Below, piece after piece: positions 698 to 17,434 of a DNA stretch of 17,434 nucleotides (position 1 is the stretch's first letter; each line of letters begins with the position of its first letter). The translations under genes and the position numbers were made by a program. Source of the DNA: a virus. Taxonomy: Duplodnaviria > Heunggongvirae > Uroviricota > Caudoviricetes. The notes beneath the pieces are model-generated. The model was not told the origin of the DNA. It did not search any database and saw only the letters and a list, made by a program, of their open reading frames with translations. The stretch lies in IMG/VR virus record IMGVR_UViG_2671180606_000003, positions 1-17,434 of that record; one strand, given 5' to 3'.

Positions 698-1060
698 GGG
701 GCTGATTCTGGATTCGACGGGATTTGCGAAACCCAAGGTGCATGCCGAGGGGCGGTTGGCCTCGTAAAAAGCCGCAAAAAATAGTCGCAAACGACGAAAA
801 CTACGCTTTAGCAGCTTAATAACCTGCTTAGAGCCCTCTCTCCCTAGCCTCCGCTCTTAGGACGGGGATCAAGAGAGGTCAAACCCAAAAGAGATCGCGT
901 GGAAGCCCTGCCTGGGGTTGAAGCGTTAAAACTTAATCAGGCTAGTTTGTTAGTGGCGTGTCCGTCCGCAGCTGGCAAGCGAATGTAAAGACTGACTAAG
1001 CATGTAGTACCGAGGATGTAGGAATTTCGGACGCGGGTTCAACTCCCGCCAGCTCCACCA
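698..1060 (+). ncRNA. ssrA: tmRNA (transfer-messenger RNA, SsrA)
   Basis: Starts 'GGGGCTGATTCTGGATTCGACGGG', contains the tag-peptide reading frame 'gcaaacgacgaaaactacgctttagcagcttaa' (ANDENYALAA-stop) and ends with the tRNA-like 3' end '...GGTTCAACTCCCGCCAGCTCCACCA'; 363 nt. Confidence 0.97.
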
Positions 1061-3080: not shown

Positions 3081-3562
3081 GACAGCAGCCCTCCCACCGT
3101 TTTACTGATATCACTTAAGGCAGATGTTGCCGTGTCCTGCAGATTATTCAGTTGCGTACTGAGATCACCGAACATATCGGACAGGGATTCATCCACCCGT
3201 TTGAGCGACAGGGTGAACTCAATCCGCCGCGGCATACCGTCGCGGAAAAACTCCGTTTTAGTCAGATTCAGTCCCTCAATCACATACATGCCGTAAATCG
3301 TGCCGCTGCCTTCAATCAGGGGCCATGCTTTTCCCTGTTCTGCCATCTGCTCCAGAGCCAGCAACGACAGCCTGCCGCCCGTTATCTCCGGCATAAGAAC
3401 ACCAGAAAGCGTCAGCATGTCGTTGTCCGGTCCCAGAAACTGCGTGGACGGACGACGGTTTACCCGGCTGTTTGCCGCATGTCGCCAGCTGCGTTGATAC
3501 TGCAGTTCCTGATACGGAACGGTGCGCAGCATAAACACGTACAATCCCAGCACCATCATCAT
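3077..3562 (-). CDS. U: P2-family tail protein U (gpU)
   Basis: 161-aa ORF between the tape-measure remnant and D, the P2 order T-U-D-ogr; size matches gpU (approx. 159 aa). Confidence 0.85.
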   Translation of the reverse strand: MMMVLGLYVFMLRTVPYQELQYQRSWRHAANSRVNRRPSTQFLGPDNDMLTLSGVLMPEITGGRLSLLALEQMAEQGKAWPLIEGSGTIYGMYVIEGLNLTKTEFFRDGMPRRIEFTLSLKRVDESLSDMFGDLSTQLNNLQDTATSALSDISKTVGGLLS

Positions 3563-4479
3563 GCGTCGTATCCCCCCTGATCGCTGTAGTTACTCCTGGC
3601 TTTTGCCTTCAGCCTGCGTTCACGTTCATCAAGCTGGCGTGCCACCTCCCGCGCAATATCCTGCGCACTTTGTCCTGGCTGCATCTGAATGATGATCTGC
3701 GTCGGTGCCTCAATCCTGTAAACGGGCGGCACAGTGGCTGCACGACTCACCATCGCTTCGCCGCCTTTCGCGGGAAGTGCCAAAGGATGCAACGGTGGAA
3801 GCTCTGCAGGCGCGGCAGCAACGCCCATCATTCCGGCAACAACGGCAGCCAGTGCAGCTGTATTTCTCCGGCTGGTCACATTTGCCGGGCCGTTAACAAT
3901 TTCCGGCCCGTTTTCACCGACGATGCCAAACTGCCCGCGCGGGATATAGCCGCCGCTGTCATACATCCCCGCAAAGCCATATCCCCATGACGGAAAACCA
4001 CCCGATGGCATCATCACTTTACCGTTTGTATTCACCGTCGCAGGTTGCTGACGCGTCACACTTTCCGGTAGTTTCGCCTTTGCGGCCTCTTTACTGACAA
4101 CGCCGAGTTTCTCCAGCAACCAGGAAACGCCGGATTTCAGGGAGTCCAGCGGATGCATGACCATATTCAGCCCTTCCGCCAGTGCCTCCCCGAATCGCCG
4201 CCCCATTGCCGCTGCACTCTGCAGTTCGGCAGAGGTTGACTTAACGGGCGTCAGCAGATCAGTAAACCAGCCCCACAGCGCCTGTACTTTGTCGCCAATC
4301 CACTGGAACACGGGCTTAAGCGGTTCGAATGCTGCACTGACGGGACCTGCCGCCGCTTTGAATCCTTCCACCACGCCACCAAGAAATGCGGTGATGGGTT
4401 GCCAGTATTTCCAGACAACCAGCGCCACGCCCGCCAGTGCAGTAACCACAAGACCTATCGGACTGAGCAGAGCACCTAC
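3559..4479 (-). pseudogene. T: Tail tape-measure protein (gpT), C-terminal fragment only
   Basis: Open frame of approx. 300 codons directly upstream of U, Gly/Ala-rich tape-measure-like C-terminus. P2 gpT is approx. 815 aa, but here the frame is closed by an in-frame stop at 4480-4482 and abuts an opposite-strand gene, so the N-terminal two-thirds are deleted. Confidence 0.7.
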
Positions 4480-4501
4480 CTACTGGTTTGTGCAATACGG
4501 C

Positions 4502-5092
4502 ATGACTACACAGCCGTATCAGTTCACGAAAGGCAGCATTTTTCACCTGATGGAACCGGATATCAACCAGGAGATCTACGGCCTGCCCGGTTATCTTTCT
4601 GCCATTCCGTCAGCCCTGCTCAACGAGTCCGCCACGCTGTTCCGCCGCAAGTATTACATTAACGGCAGCCACGCAGGCTTCATCATGTACATGACCGACG
4701 CCGCGCAGAATCAGGAGGATGTGAACAACCTCCGCAACGCGATGAAAAGCGCCAAAGGTCCAGGCAACTTCCGCAACCTGTTTATGTACTCACCTAACGG
4801 CAAAAAAGACGGGCTTCAGATCATCCCATTGTCAGAAGTCGCGGCGAAGGATGAATTTCTTAACATCAAGAACGTGAGTCGGGATGACATGATGGCAGCG
4901 CACCGCGTGCCGCCGCAAATGATGGGGATTATGCCGAATAATGTTGGGGGGTTTGGGGATGTGGAAAAGGCAAGCCGTGTATTCGTCCGAAATGAGCTAA
5001 TGCCACTACAAAAGCGATTACAGGAGATGAATGATTGGCTTGGCAAGGAGGCGATACAGTTTAATACCTACTCACTAGATATAGTCCCATAA
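4502..5092 (+). pseudogene. Q: Probable portal protein (gpQ-like) C-terminal fragment
   Basis: First in-frame ATG after the deletion junction; the upstream part of the six-frame ORF (4157-4501) is antisense to the tape-measure remnant. Strand and position (C-terminus pointing toward the cos-side region) fit P2 gene Q; the translation has a phage-portal-like flavour, unverified. Confidence 0.45.
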
Positions 5093-5126: not shown

Positions 5127-5867
5127 TTACTCAATAGGTTCAAACTCATCCTGAGGAATCAGCGTCGATTGACAGGCTTGGCTTAGTACTCCTGATAATT
5201 TACATAATAACCGATAGTTATGAGGAGCATCATCGCTAATCTTTTCGACCGTTAAAGTGATTGATTTTGGATCATCCAATAACATCTTCTTGATATCATT
5301 ACTTAAATACCTAGGGCAGTAACCAACGATTTCAGCTGGTTTATCTGCACGAACGACAACAGCATCCCCATCGTATTCATTTTGAAGATCCAAGCAAAGA
5401 CGCAAAATTTGCCCCGGTTTCAATTCAGATACACGAGCATTAGCTAAGCTATTTAAGTAACCAAGTCCATGTAAGAAGAAAAAATGCTCAAAGTTACCAT
5501 CAGAATCAACATCAATTTTTTTGAAAATCTGCAGCTGATCAGTGCTTCGTAAGCCTCCCGAGCGAGCAAGAATATCGATAGGATTTACCTTATCTTCTTC
5601 AAATCCAAGCCATTTAATGAAACTCGGATACTCTGGACGTCTCGGTGATAAAAGGCGATTTTTAAAAAGAGGAAACAATTCTTCCGAAACATAAGTTTCA
5701 CGAACATCACTCATGCCGCTAAACTTTGTAAATTTAGTAGATTTAAGAGCACCTTTGGTATACCTGAAAACATACCCCGATTTGCGCTCTTGCAAGTTAC
5801 CAACAACATGCCAGTCTCTGGTATCTGGTGCCTGCCATGCGACGTAAACGGAGTTTGTATTAGTCAT
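5127..5867 (-). CDS. HipA-N-terminal-like (HipS-like) module fused to a C-terminal HIRAN domain (246 aa)
   Basis: Start overlaps the kinase stop in an ATGA. The N-terminal approx. 110 aa (VYVAWQ...VVGNL...YVFRY...LFPLFKNRLLSP...IDILARSGGLRS) resemble the HipA N-terminal subdomain / HipS. The C-terminal approx. 110 aa (HGLGYLNS...LKPGQILRLCLDLQNEYDGDAVVVRADKPAEIVGYCPRYLSNDIKKMLLDD...ITLTVEKI) match the HIRAN pattern as in the HLTF N-terminus. Confidence 0.8.
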   Translation of the reverse strand: MTNTNSVYVAWQAPDTRDWHVVGNLQERKSGYVFRYTKGALKSTKFTKFSGMSDVRETYVSEELFPLFKNRLLSPRRPEYPSFIKWLGFEEDKVNPIDILARSGGLRSTDQLQIFKKIDVDSDGNFEHFFFLHGLGYLNSLANARVSELKPGQILRLCLDLQNEYDGDAVVVRADKPAEIVGYCPRYLSNDIKKMLLDDPKSITLTVEKISDDAPHNYRLLCKLSGVLSQACQSTLIPQDEFEPIE

Positions 5868-6778
5868 TCTAGTAACCTTCTGCGATTTTCCATTACCATT
5901 AACGTTGCAAATCTACGTGCACTGTCGGATATACACGATGAAGGCACTTGGTTAAACACATCTGTAATGGAATCTTCTGTTAAAACGCTCAACTTACCTA
6001 ACCAATGGTCGCGAGCGGCAACTCTCCCTTCAACTGCATGTTGAAATGCTTCAACGGTCAGCAAGGGCTTTTTATCAGTTTTTGCTTTGAATAGCTCAGA
6101 GCGAGCTTTTCTTACAAAACATGGGATTTGTCGATTTTTATCTTTAGTATTAAGCCGTTCGTTACGCTCATCATCTAACATCTCCCTTCCTAAACTAGCG
6201 GCATGATCGTATGTTGGACACAAAAACTGCTCACCAGTTTCATTGTTAAGCATGATCGCCCAATTTTCATGATGGCGATCTTGATTACTCACAAGTGCAT
6301 CGAGCATCAAATATCCACAAAATACATCTGCTGCATTTAGCCCGGTTAGATCATATACACTCGGAGGAGGCTTGATAGATTCCCTATCCAAACAACCCAA
6401 TACCCTTGTGACAGTGTGTTCTCTGACCCTTACCGGCTTTTCCCCGGCTTGTAAAGGCCCAGGATAATCGAATGTCGAACTGTGAAGCACTTCATTTCCC
6501 ATTACCATCCGGAAACCAGATGGAATGATATTCTGAGTCACCACACCGAATCGACCATTGTATCGCGCCAAATCATAGCTAGCATGTGGAATGTTAAGCA
6601 AATGACATAACTCAGCAGCACACTTTTCAGACCAATGCTCGCCAGTACCTGGCCTAGAGTACTTAAACAACTGCAAATTTACAGTGTCATCGGAGAAATA
6701 GAACCAAAACTTCTCTTTGGTTCCTAACTGTTCAAGATCGTTAGCTACGGGGCTAAGCTCTACCAATTGGTATGGCAT
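5864..6778 (-). CDS. HipA-family (HipT/CtkA-like) Ser/Thr kinase core domain (304 aa)
   Basis: P-loop-like 'GTKEKFW' (compare HipA 'GAQEKTAL') and catalytic-loop 'LVSNQDRHHENWAIM' (compare HipA 'IGATDGHAKNFSV'); lacks the HipA N-terminal subdomain. RBS-like 'aggga' 7 nt upstream of the ATG. AT-rich relative to the phage backbone. Confidence 0.85.
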   Translation of the reverse strand: MPYQLVELSPVANDLEQLGTKEKFWFYFSDDTVNLQLFKYSRPGTGEHWSEKCAAELCHLLNIPHASYDLARYNGRFGVVTQNIIPSGFRMVMGNEVLHSSTFDYPGPLQAGEKPVRVREHTVTRVLGCLDRESIKPPPSVYDLTGLNAADVFCGYLMLDALVSNQDRHHENWAIMLNNETGEQFLCPTYDHAASLGREMLDDERNERLNTKDKNRQIPCFVRKARSELFKAKTDKKPLLTVEAFQHAVEGRVAARDHWLGKLSVLTEDSITDVFNQVPSSCISDSARRFATLMVMENRRRLLE

Positions 6779-7386: not shown

Positions 7387-8355
7387 GTGGGATCTTTCAG
7401 TTTACTTGCATCACGACCAATACCAACTGTGCTAGAAACAAGACAGTTTAACTCAGTTAACGGCAGTGACGCCGAATCTTATGCAATGAGTCAATTCATT
7501 CTTGCTTGTAGAGGAGAGGGGCACTGGGGTTCCAGGGAAGACGACAATTCAAAAATAGATTTAATATTATCCTTCGAACATCCATGGGCATCAAAAGAAA
7601 GAATGCTTATATTGTCGCAAGTTAAATCAGGGGCAACTTATGGTCATTTATTAGAGAAAGGTTTTGTATTAAATTCGGCCGCAAAAAAAGCAGCCAAAAG
7701 GACAACTCACCATATATGTGTCGTTTGGGTTGACAGAACTAATCGTAAAGCATTTTGGGCCTATATACATCCAAACACTACCCTTAAAAACCAAACTTAT
7801 GGAGAATATCACTTAATCACTCCGGCTACACGGTTTGACCTGGCTCGCTGTATGTCCATGGTACGTGCAGGTGAAACTGGAGCAAAAGGAATCCATGTAA
7901 GAAGAAGAAACTCACTACTTAATAATCGGCGAGCGTTTGTTAAAAAACGTTATTCTGAACAGAAAGAAATCACATCTCCGGTGCTTGGGAAAATCGAGCT
8001 TACACGGCTGGGTTGGAGACATATGTTCAGAAAGAGTCGCAGAGAAGAAAACAAAGCAACGAGTTTGGACATTATTCCCTACTTGAGAAATTTACTAGTT
8101 CGGTTTCCTTCAACTCATGCTATTACTTCTTCTGATGTCCGTGATTACGGCTGTTTTACTTACCAAAGAAGAGAGCACTTATTGAAATTTAATAATCTAG
8201 AGGTTACTTATGCCAAAGGAGAGGGAAAAAATAAAGTATGTGCTTATATTCGTGTTATAGAAGAAATAAGGTATCCAAAAGATTGGACTAACGCGGTAAT
8301 GCTATCACAGCAGGTTGAAAGACGAGTGGTTTTGAAGTCAGCATATTATAAATAA
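7387..8355 (+). CDS. Hypothetical cargo protein (322 aa), possibly a PD-(D/E)xK-like nuclease fold
   Basis: GTG start 9 nt downstream of 'GGAGAG'. AT-rich. The N-terminal region carries 'KIDLILSFEH...SQVKSG', compatible with a D...E...(Q/E)xK restriction-endonuclease-like motif; the C-terminus is basic. Domain assignment is weak. Confidence 0.65.
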   Translation: MGSFSLLASRPIPTVLETRQFNSVNGSDAESYAMSQFILACRGEGHWGSREDDNSKIDLILSFEHPWASKERMLILSQVKSGATYGHLLEKGFVLNSAAKKAAKRTTHHICVVWVDRTNRKAFWAYIHPNTTLKNQTYGEYHLITPATRFDLARCMSMVRAGETGAKGIHVRRRNSLLNNRRAFVKKRYSEQKEITSPVLGKIELTRLGWRHMFRKSRREENKATSLDIIPYLRNLLVRFPSTHAITSSDVRDYGCFTYQRREHLLKFNNLEVTYAKGEGKNKVCAYIRVIEEIRYPKDWTNAVMLSQQVERRVVLKSAYYK

Positions 8356-14624: not shown

Positions 14625-14726
14625 AGTGCAGTATCTCTTGGTTTAAGCTCGTTTTATGATGTTTAACCCCAACTTCTAAACTCTCATATTAGAAGTTAAA
14701 TACAAAAATACGATCTCGTTATTGGA
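14625..14726. promoter_or_regulatory. Lysis/lysogeny switch region (pR/pL equivalents) with candidate operators
   Basis: 102-bp AT-rich spacer between divergent apl and cI. Contains a perfect 9-bp inverted repeat 'AACTTCTAA'-N9-'TTAGAAGTT' (14671-14697) and direct 'GTTTAA' repeats at 14641 and 14661; promoter hexamers not confidently assigned. Confidence 0.5.
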
Positions 14727-15377
14727 TTGTCAAATGGAGAGTTCATCTTGAAGATTAATACAGGTGCAAATACGGGAGGGAGAGAGACCATCAAAAGGCT
14801 GATGACAGCCTATGGTTTCAACACTCAGATAGCGTTGGTTGAACACCTCGAAGCATCAAAAAGCACCATGGCAAACAGGATGTTACGTGATAGCTTCCCT
14901 GCTGACTGGGTTATTCAATGTGCCCTTGAAACAGGTATTTCTCTTCTTTGGCTGACAACGGGCCAAGGGGAAATGTATCCTCAAACAGAAGAAAAAAATA
15001 AGTTCAAAAACGAGAGTTCACCTACAGTTCGCCCCCTTTCAAAGATAGTTATCCCATCAGTAAGGCAGGCAACCATTGAGAACGGAACTCTCGAAGAGAT
15101 GGGGGATGTTTTCCTTGATCAGACTTTGATACCCGGAAAAGCCGAATATTGTTTGTACGTCAAAGCTAACGACGGCAATTACATTGTTGATACATCAACA
15201 AAACAGCTTAGTAACGGAATTTGGCTCATAGACATCGACGGTATGAAAAACATCGTCAAAATTGCGCGCATACCTGGAAACAAAATAGTAGTTAACCAAG
15301 ATGACACGTCATTTGAATGTTCTGTAGATGATGTGGAAGTCGTAGGACGTGCAGTCAAAGTAATCAAGAACCTCTAA
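14727..15377 (+). CDS. cI: CI-like immunity repressor (HTH and C-terminal domain)
   Basis: HTH segment 'NTQIALVEHLEASKSTMANRMLRDSFPADWVIQCALETGISLLWL'; directly upstream of int in the same direction as in 186. The six-frame ORF starts at a TTG; the true start may be internal. Confidence 0.8.
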   Translation: MSNGEFILKINTGANTGGRETIKRLMTAYGFNTQIALVEHLEASKSTMANRMLRDSFPADWVIQCALETGISLLWLTTGQGEMYPQTEEKNKFKNESSPTVRPLSKIVIPSVRQATIENGTLEEMGDVFLDQTLIPGKAEYCLYVKANDGNYIVDTSTKQLSNGIWLIDIDGMKNIVKIARIPGNKIVVNQDDTSFECSVDDVEVVGRAVKVIKNL

Positions 15378-15380
15378 CTT

Positions 15381-16400
15381 ATGACCATAAGAAAACAGCC
15401 GAACGGAAAATGGTTGTGTGAGTGCTATCCCAATGGACGCAATGGTAAGCGCGTGCGTAAGCAATTTGCTACCAAAGGCGAAGCTATTGCATTTGAAAGC
15501 TTCACAATGGAAGAAGTGAACAAAAAACCATGGCTGGGGGAAAAGGAAGATCGGCGACATTTATCAGAATTAATTGAGCTGTGGTATTCCCTGTATGGTC
15601 AAACACTCACAGACCCCAAGCGCCTCATGGCGAAACTTAGTATTATCTGTAATGGTCTAGGCGATCCCATCGCTTCAGAACTGACAGCCGGTGACTTTAC
15701 GAAATACCGCGAAGCACGGTTAAAAGGTGAAGTACGAAATGAAGATGGCACGCTTATGTCGCCCGTTAAGCCCCGCACGGTAAACCTTGAACAGCGCAAT
15801 CTATCATCTGTTTTTGGTACACTGAAAAAGCTGGGCCACTGGTCAGCCCCCAACCCGCTTGCCGGGCTGCCAACATTTAAAATTGCTGAGAGTGAATTGG
15901 CGTTCCTGACCCCGGAAGAAATTAAACGTCTGCTGGATGCCTGTGCTGATTCTCAAAGCTCTAGTCTGCTGACGGTTGCAAAAATATGTCTGGCCACCGG
16001 CGCGAGATGGAGTGAAGCCGAAAACCTGCAGGGCCATCAATTATCAAAATACCGGATCACTTACACCAAAACTAAAGGCAAGAAAAACCGAACCGTACCG
16101 ATATCTCAGGAGCTATATGAAGAACTCCCCAAAAACAGAGGGAAACTATTCACGCCCTGCAGAAAAGCTTTTGAGCGCGCAGTAAAACGAGCCGGTATAG
16201 ACCTGCCTGAAGGCCAGTGCACACACGTGTTGCGCCATACATTCGCCAGTCACTTCATGATGAATGGCGGAAACATATTGGTACTACGCGATATTCTTGG
16301 TCACTCTGATATAAAAATGACGATGGTTTATGCTCATTTTTCGCCAGATCATTTAGAAGATGCTGTAACAAAAAATCCACTGGCTATGTTGGGATACTGA
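15381..16400 (+). CDS. int: Tyrosine integrase, P2/186 Int family
   Basis: 339 aa; 'RNGKRVRKQF', 'LATGARWSEAENL', 'RTVPIS', 'HVLRHTFASHF' and 'MVYAHFSPDHL' align with P2 Int signatures (R, H-x-x-R, Y catalytic residues). Confidence 0.93.
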   Translation: MTIRKQPNGKWLCECYPNGRNGKRVRKQFATKGEAIAFESFTMEEVNKKPWLGEKEDRRHLSELIELWYSLYGQTLTDPKRLMAKLSIICNGLGDPIASELTAGDFTKYREARLKGEVRNEDGTLMSPVKPRTVNLEQRNLSSVFGTLKKLGHWSAPNPLAGLPTFKIAESELAFLTPEEIKRLLDACADSQSSSLLTVAKICLATGARWSEAENLQGHQLSKYRITYTKTKGKKNRTVPISQELYEELPKNRGKLFTPCRKAFERAVKRAGIDLPEGQCTHVLRHTFASHFMMNGGNILVLRDILGHSDIKMTMVYAHFSPDHLEDAVTKNPLAMLGY

Positions 16401-16402
16401 TA

Positions 16403-17434
16403 ATGGAAAAAAGCATTAGCACATTTATGTACCTATCCGTTTTATTAGGTTGTATATTCTTATTTATAAAATATCGACTTTATGTTCTCGATCATAGAAG
16501 CTTGTTCCAACAACCCTTGTTCTGGGCTGCAATAGGCCTACCTTTATTCACCAGCCTTTACTTTGGTTCTTTTGTCTGGATAGATAAAATACACTCTTTT
16601 AGTCTTACAAGTCACGGTTATGAGAGATTTTTAGATATCTCGAAATTACCATTACTCATCCTTGCATCTGCAGTACCTTTAGTTTCAATAGTAAACAACC
16701 TACACAGAACCAAACAAACAGAAAAACAGATCTCAGAGGCAGAAAGGAAAAACAGGGTAGATTTATATTACAACCACATGAAATTTCATCTTGATTTATA
16801 TAAAAAAATCGAAGGAAAAAGAATAGGCAGCTACTACCCGGTTCAGGAAGCTCAAGCTGAAGCAATCTACCAACATTTTATAAAACATCCACAAGAACTA
16901 TATAGAAAAGCATACCCACAATCTACGCCTGATGATTCTCAACAATTAGATATTAATGAGCAATTTGTTATTGATTTACACAAATGTTGGGTAGAAATCA
17001 ACGCAAGACTCAAGCAATTATCCGAGAGTGAAAATCAAATACATCCTACAGAGGAACTTTGCACAACAAAGATGAGAATATTTGTAGGAGTTATGATTAT
17101 TTATGAAAAAACTTGTAAACTGTTGTGTTTAGGTGGATTTCATTATAAAAAGTCATTTGTAATAAATGATAGTTATAATAAATACCAAGTTTATTCACCA
17201 TTTTATGATTTTGGCACTCTGTACGAATCACTGCAATCCTTAGAAGAGATAACCTACGCCTTCTTGGATACTTGCAGAAATGAAGTGGTAAACTTGTACT
17301 TCCCTATAGAAGATAAAATTTTGATATATGGTGAAGGGATTCTAGAGAATTGGTTCAAGTATTCTCAGTTCTTGATCACTATAGCTTATCAACCCGCCAA
17401 GATGTCTCGCTTACCCCAGCTGAGACGCGATTGA
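16403..17434 (+). CDS. Membrane-anchored cargo protein (343 aa) coupled to the 3' end of int
   Basis: ATG 2 nt after the int stop; two or three N-terminal hydrophobic helices (FMYLSVLLGCIFLFI, LFWAAIGLPLFTSLYFGSFVWI, LPLLILASAVPLVSIV) followed by an approx. 230-aa soluble domain; strongly AT-rich; ends exactly at the window edge. Confidence 0.75.
   Translation: MEKSISTFMYLSVLLGCIFLFIKYRLYVLDHRSLFQQPLFWAAIGLPLFTSLYFGSFVWIDKIHSFSLTSHGYERFLDISKLPLLILASAVPLVSIVNNLHRTKQTEKQISEAERKNRVDLYYNHMKFHLDLYKKIEGKRIGSYYPVQEAQAEAIYQHFIKHPQELYRKAYPQSTPDDSQQLDINEQFVIDLHKCWVEINARLKQLSESENQIHPTEELCTTKMRIFVGVMIIYEKTCKLLCLGGFHYKKSFVINDSYNKYQVYSPFYDFGTLYESLQSLEEITYAFLDTCRNEVVNLYFPIEDKILIYGEGILENWFKYSQFLITIAYQPAKMSRLPQLRRD

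Follow-up and report, generated by a model that had tools for sequence, protein, structure and literature searches.

ORF X, which occupies positions 16403-17434 (+ strand) of the 17434-nt stretch of DNA analysed here (the window), encodes a 343-aa membrane protein of the PHROG 17460 family and is carried as cargo between the integrase gene int and the P arm of attP in a Fels-2-like prophage. It is one allele of this large family and a swappable occupant of the interval between int and the attachment site. X is a good candidate for a prophage-encoded anti-phage protein. The reading favoured here, to which we give roughly even chances, is that X is an inner-membrane anti-phage moron made in the lysogen, with abortive infection as the preferred mode of action and the blocking of entry as the second. 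Lysogen-expressed membrane cargo genes in prophage hotspots are known as a kind of thing; what has not been characterised is the PHROG 17460 family itself, with its C-terminal fold and the invariant segment next to the membrane.

The window opens with host DNA, which contains smpB (1-483) and the complete ssrA gene (698-1060; tag ANDENYALAA). Everything after that belongs to a Fels-2-like prophage that has integrated in ssrA, a site of integration already described for Fels-2 and SopEPhi (PMC3448106). In blastn comparison the window is collinear with Fels-2 save for one large exception: approximately 19 kb is missing, and a gpT fragment is joined to a portal fragment near 4477 (window 3559-5092). 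The deletion has removed most of the tail, lysis, capsid and terminase genes present in Fels-2, and the prophage is therefore defective; for this window, 'lysogen' means a cell with a grounded remnant prophage. The window ends with a same-strand array whose first gene encodes a 186-type cI repressor (14727-15377, +), followed by int (15381-16400, +), a tyrosine integrase gene with Pfam Int_N and Phage_integrase matches whose product is 92% identical to Fels-2 Int, and by X. Other cargo is present elsewhere in the prophage. Two overlapping AT-rich genes at 5127-6778 (- strand) correspond to a PADLOC candidate pair, one to PDC-M03B (HIRAN domain, E 2e-92) and the other to PDC-M03A (weak HipA_C, E 4e-122). 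They belong to the gpA-gpQ hotspot, where defence cargo is known to occur, and so does an AT-rich 322-aa ORF (7387-8355, +) with no Pfam or PADLOC match. Between attL and ogr, a 160-aa ORF (1129-1666) is 98% identical to Cartapus gp32 ('putative exonuclease') and shows a weak PDC-S48 match; it has no Fels-2 counterpart, so that cargo is found at the other prophage end too.

X comprises 343 codons and a TGA stop. The preliminary description had placed its start 2 nt beyond the int stop and had considered it far more AT-rich than the phage backbone, and both statements are correct: the junction reads TGA-TA-ATG (16398-16405, +) with GGGA 8 nt upstream of the ATG, and X has a GC content of 34.1% (GC3 31%), whereas int has 46.7%, cI 42.2% and the window overall 46.8%. 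The three genes lie on one strand with tight junctions, and a search of the int-X junction found no promoter-like or terminator-like sequence; within the repressor-integrase array there is neither space nor a signal from which X could be expressed on its own. The same geometry recurs in relatives. At every locus drawn from the protein index (186-type int, several integration sites) the int-X junction is 0-2 nt or an overlap. A census of 80 IMG/VR loci, in which Fels-2/186-type elements are over-represented because the search pattern was made from the conserved motif and the collections were of viral contigs, gave 59 loci with a Fels-2/186-type int ending beside the X start by a strict first-ATG test; about nine further loci show 131-136 nt between int and X, perhaps because the start was called wrongly, and three (L106, L107 and L109) have the order cI-X-int. 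A 309-aa ORF unrelated to X is found between cI and int at L007 (4070-4999), where X follows int. Both this ORF and the three contigs with X between cI and int indicate that the whole cI-int operon accepts cargo.

The comparison strongly supports, at the level of gene arrangement, the co-transcription of X with cI and int, and X would probably be coupled to them translationally as well. In the paradigm of phage 186, cI and int are expressed from the lysogenic promoter. The promoter layout of 186 has been described (PMC7498355). By analogy, X would be transcribed with cI and int from the lysogenic promoter, and its product would therefore be made in prophage-carrying cells. As H-NS often silences AT-rich genes in E. 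coli, expression of X is not guaranteed.

The attachment sites place X within the element. The att core is present once in the window, as the last 45 nt of the intact ssrA (attL core, 1016-1060, +); a copy between int and X was looked for, and since the ssrA copy is the only one, none lies there. Because the window ends exactly at the X stop, the distal site was read from near-identical genomes, namely 20 complete E. coli genomes with 99.3-99.8% DNA identity over 14700-17434. In strain 1409 (L001) the X stop is followed by 4 nt and then by TGGCGACA-TTT-TGGCGGCA, a tandem array of TGGCGRCA repeats; a 47-bp copy of the ssrA 3' end, the attR core matching that of the window, occurs 115 nt past the X stop and is followed by the host gene ypjA, and the intact ssrA lies at the opposite prophage end. 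Arm repeats and then the 47-bp core follow the X stop in the 20 near-identical genomes. X had been proposed to precede any att site, with the distal copy of the ssrA 3' end to be sought beyond the window, and the copy was found there. Further copies of the repeat, on the P' arm, are present just inside attL at 1109 and 1120 and, inverted, at 1149-1156, and in Fels-2 the repeats begin 4 nt past the int stop. The attP of 186 contains Int arm sites, IHF sites and Apl operators (PMC7498355), and by analogy with it the TGGCGRCA repeats are probably Int arm-type sites. Because both the repeats and the ssrA core lie 3' of the X stop, X is inside the element, between int and the att core, as expected of cargo in an int-att hotspot.

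Several features around attR deserve separate mention. The att copies of strain 1409 align over the core with one mismatch. In the attR core (L001 8850-8896; window 1016-1060) C replaces the U of the ssrA G3:U70 pair (CAGCCCCACCA versus CAGCTCCACCA). The attR copies of L012 and L014 retain T at this position. RefSeq annotates a 177-nt 'ssrA' in strain 1409 (L001 8720-8896, equivalent to window position 17419 to ~160 nt past its end) that overlaps the last 16 nt of X. We reject this as a tmRNA-like gene because the Rfam alignment is marginal (50.6 bits against a cut-off of 47), skips 267 model positions and is not reproduced at the attR of other alleles, none of which reaches the Rfam cut-off; the last bases of X, GCTGAGACGCGATT, resemble the ssrA 5' end by chance. 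A type II restriction-modification pair at L012 (18305-20981) was also considered as slot cargo and rejected. It lies just beyond the attR core of a related prophage and hence outside the int-att slot; this pair does not belong to the phage but forms an island of its own, stacked next to the prophage at ssrA.

The interval from the int stop to the arm repeats varies in occupancy beside near-identical flanks. It is empty in Fels-2, where int is followed by 4 nt and the arm repeats; in Salmonella phage RE-2010 and Escherichia phage Cartapus it holds a 401-aa protein unrelated to X; in many prophages it holds X-family genes; and in L003/L004 and L013 it holds X followed by a relative of the 401-aa RES-like protein. 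X had been called an extra gene, which is right with respect to Fels-2 but not in the sense of a one-off acquisition, X being one allele of PHROG 17460, a regular occupant of the slot. In most IMG/VR loci Int is 91-95% identical to that of the window, whereas the X product is only 24-46% identical to the window protein; the E. coli allele at L012 is 31% identical to it. In a 2026 survey of P2-like prophages the int-att interval is a minor defence hotspot that accounts for 3% of systems (PMC13586616). DNA similarity between the window and Fels-2 stops at 16381, 19 nt before the int stop (blastn), and the cassette extends from ~20 nt upstream of the int stop codon to the arm repeats. Boundaries of this kind explain how alleles can pass from phage to phage with integration undisturbed. 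At L013 (5030-5130) the X-family ORF continues across the remnants of an arm repeat and, next, of an int 3' end before the RES-like gene is reached, giving a protein that ends in ...GDTLAAEHLEDVVTKNPLFNL; here an int-X phage and an int-RES-like phage were joined by recombination. The C-terminal 'GDTLAAE' of many relatives was considered as a protein motif and rejected, as it arises from the ORF reading into the TGGCGRCA arm repeats.

Over its full length X matches PHROG 17460, a family of unknown function (E 5.1e-203, residues 1-343 on profile positions 1-343), and the same profile is matched by all 50 of 50 diverse relatives. A word-indexed search yielded 48 relatives, and an exhaustive profile search yielded 923 representative clusters at 50% identity (E<=0.001). 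The exact X sequence is present on at least 1000 contigs of E. coli, Salmonella, Cronobacter and Enterobacter, and every name attached to it and to its cluster is 'hypothetical protein'. The ORF is intact in defective prophages. Relatives also occur in other settings: one lies directly behind a LexA-like repressor in a Vibrio Vinavirales element unrelated to the prophage of the window, another is in a Vibrio inovirus, and a few are found after umuDC (Pseudomonas), beside the far end of a P2-like prophage (Budvicia) or alone in the chromosome (Siccibacter). The relatives at L018 and L022 have no recognisable prophage operon around them. A literature search with the RefSeq accession of X, the PHROG identifier and exclusion genes beside P2-like integrases returned no paper on the family, and the DefensePredictor supplements do not contain the X accessions.

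Hydropathy and an AlphaFold model (pLDDT 88.7) predict three membrane helices, at residues ~8-23 (TM1), 38-60 (TM2) and 82-98 (TM3). The membrane region (residues ~8-98; 16424-16696, +), with a short periplasmic loop at 61-81, is followed by a juxtamembrane cytoplasmic helix (residues 99-135; 16697-16807, +) and by a variable domain of helices and beta-hairpins (residues 136-343; 16808-17431, +; pLDDT 92.8). The ~245-aa C-terminal part is predicted to be cytoplasmic by the positive-inside rule, because the loop at 23-38 and the segment after TM3 are positively charged. X would thus be an inner-membrane protein with its N-terminus out and its C-terminus in. The N-terminal transmembrane helices and large soluble domain of the preliminary description are borne out by this prediction, as is its failure to recognise a motif: the remote-homology and structure searches that it suggested leave the domain unrecognised. 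Neither Pfam, NCBIfam nor PADLOC gave a match for X, or a consistent family for X with its 34 and 50 relatives; PDB sequence searches with X and the family profile gave no match; Foldseek against BFVD gave none at E<=0.001; and the C-terminal domain has no significant fold match in PDB or BFVD. Searching with the C-terminal domain alone for other architectures returned relatives of the same architecture only. PADLOC-DB 2.0 component models gave 0 matches to X at E<=10, and among the 50 relatives PADLOC 2.0 gave scattered single-member matches only (E>=4e-5). No homology or fold match links PHROG 17460 to defence.

Conservation is distributed very unevenly along the protein. Among 50 diverse members mean pairwise identity is 19% for the TM1 region (1-33), 44% for TM2-TM3 (34-98), 49% for the juxtamembrane helix (99-135) and 16% for the C-terminal domain (136-343). 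In 34 closer relatives L34, Q37, F40, P47, G55, W59, G72, F76, P83, L87, A88, N99, H101, R102, T103, Q105, T106, E107, K108, Q109, I110, K116, N117 and D120 are invariant and H125 and K127 nearly so; the residues from N99 to K127 form the signature of the juxtamembrane helix, in which the invariant HRTxQTEKQ stretch directly follows TM3. L34, Q37, F40, F76, P83, H101, Q105, Q109 and D120 are still invariant in the 50 most diverse members, where most of the remaining conserved positions are at least 90% conserved. Residues 34-135 have a median dN/dS (Nei-Gojobori, 51 pairs) of 0.04, and the C-terminal domain has one of 0.16. Both halves of X are under purifying selection, the C-terminal half being approximately four times more relaxed, and the value of 0.16 led us to reject domain-wide positive selection in this half. 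Because of these ratios, the 48 word-indexed homologues and the 923 clusters, X is regarded as a real, constrained gene and no chance ORF.

From these properties we infer a defence role for X and a division of labour between its two halves. X would be an accessory (moron) gene in the int-attP arm slot of a Fels-2/186-type temperate phage, and its most likely role would be to shield the lysogen from attack by other phages. The constant working part may consist of the conserved TM2-TM3 hairpin together with the invariant polar residues that follow TM3 (HRTxQTEKQ...KN..D), and the fast-diverging cytoplasmic domain may be the specificity part. As for functional class, exclusion, abortive infection and conversion are each conceivable. 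In the favoured mechanism, of abortive-infection type, the cytoplasmic domain would sense a phage product and the membrane module would then compromise the membrane; the second choice is that DNA entry would be blocked at the inner membrane. Abortive infection is ranked above entry exclusion because proteins in which a cytoplasmic domain is fused to a membrane module are found more typically among abortive-infection effectors than among entry blockers.

The closest functional analogue is RexB of phage lambda, a membrane protein encoded in the immunity operon behind the repressor, made in lysogens and involved in abortive, membrane-level exclusion of other phages. X resembles RexB (with RexA) as a membrane protein from a repressor operon. 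However, no similarity between the two was found by Pfam or PADLOC, X has three helices and its own large cytoplasmic domain in place of a separate sensor gene, and its operon is the cI-int-X array of a P2/186-type phage. Kiwa KwaA and the CBASS-type 2TM effectors are likewise small multi-pass membrane proteins that serve as defence effectors, and single relatives of X show weak PADLOC matches to them (E 4e-5 to 9e-3, one member each), but these matches are not family-wide and are absent for X, which also lacks a partner gene (KwaB or a cyclase, for example). The P2 genes old, tin and fun(Z) and the gpA-gpQ hotspot provide accessory, compositionally atypical and lysogen-expressed excluders in the same phage group (Rousset 2022, PMC9122126; PMC13586616). 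old, tin and fun(Z) differ from X in that they occupy other genome slots, belong to other protein families and have no detectable similarity to it; unlike the gpA-gpQ cargo, X is a member of the repressor operon and occupies the minor int-att hotspot, where 3% of P2 systems are found. The 401-aa RES-like protein of RE-2010 and Cartapus shares the exact slot of X, from the int stop to the TGGCGRCA repeats, and a relative of it lies downstream of X in L003 and L013, but it is unrelated to X in sequence, is soluble and has no Pfam or PADLOC match.

Four other readings were weighed against this anti-phage role with abortive infection in first place. Strict superinfection exclusion, in which X in the inner membrane would stop an incoming genome from entering without killing the cell, is unlikely but survives best. 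X would act through the TM2-TM3 hairpin and the periplasmic loop or by binding a host membrane component used for injection, and the membrane location, the presumed expression with the immunity operon and the conserved membrane module all fit. P22 SieA, T4 Imm and HK97 gp15, entry blockers that are prophage or phage inner-membrane proteins, serve as precedents. Such proteins are, however, mostly small, only ~20 residues of X are exposed to the periplasm, and a large variable part predicted to be cytoplasmic is unusual among them. Less likely still is lysogenic conversion unrelated to phages, by which X would benefit the host through altered envelope physiology, stress tolerance or virulence. 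The retention of a moron-like, AT-rich gene intact in defective prophages, and its spread over four genera, would suit such a role; X has, however, no enzymatic, transport or signalling domain, and such extreme diversity of alleles next to an int that hardly varies is seen more typically in conflict genes.

It is quite improbable that X serves the phage's own cycle, either as a membrane-bound regulator of induction, Int availability or lysis timing or as a stabilizing addiction-like toxin. The tight linkage to int and cI points in this direction, as does the 3' end of X, which lies directly against the probable Int arm sites and in relatives runs into them; against it, Fels-2 and other functional relatives have no X and RE-2010 and Cartapus carry an unrelated gene instead, from which it follows that X is dispensable for lysogeny, integration and growth, and no antitoxin-like partner is present. 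Least probable is a membrane-anchored HEPN ribonuclease, an abortive-infection toxin similar to AbiV or RiboL-PSP, since the likeness amounts to a helical-bundle C-terminal domain, one relative with a precomputed HEPN_RiboL-PSP match and sub-threshold Pfam matches in three of 34 relatives (best 25.1 bits against a cut-off of 28.4), which belong to a minority subclade with an RNxxxH-like motif in the loop before helix 217-240, whereas X has SENQIH at the aligned Rx4-6H site (the start of the last core helix), R.{4,6}H occurs there in only 12 of 167 relatives, so that motif counting rejects X as a member, no profile or fold match exceeds threshold and the fold similarity is at noise level.

If X, in the favoured reading, protects lysogens against other phages, a large unannotated family (923 clusters at 50% identity) would join the prophage-borne defences, and the P2/186-type repressor-integrase operon would be a regular carrier of defence genes with default expression in every lysogen. 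More tentatively, and at somewhat less than even probability, PHROG 17460 as a whole may be a new, widespread single-gene anti-phage system, with the hairpin and HRTxQTEKQ as an effector of a kind not described before and the cytoplasmic domain as a swappable sensor, carried as a cassette in the Fels-2/186-type repressor-integrase operon, with other versions of it in tectivirus-like (Vinavirales) and filamentous phages of Vibrio. With its constant membrane module and its variable cytoplasmic domain so clearly set apart, X offers direct handles for experiments.
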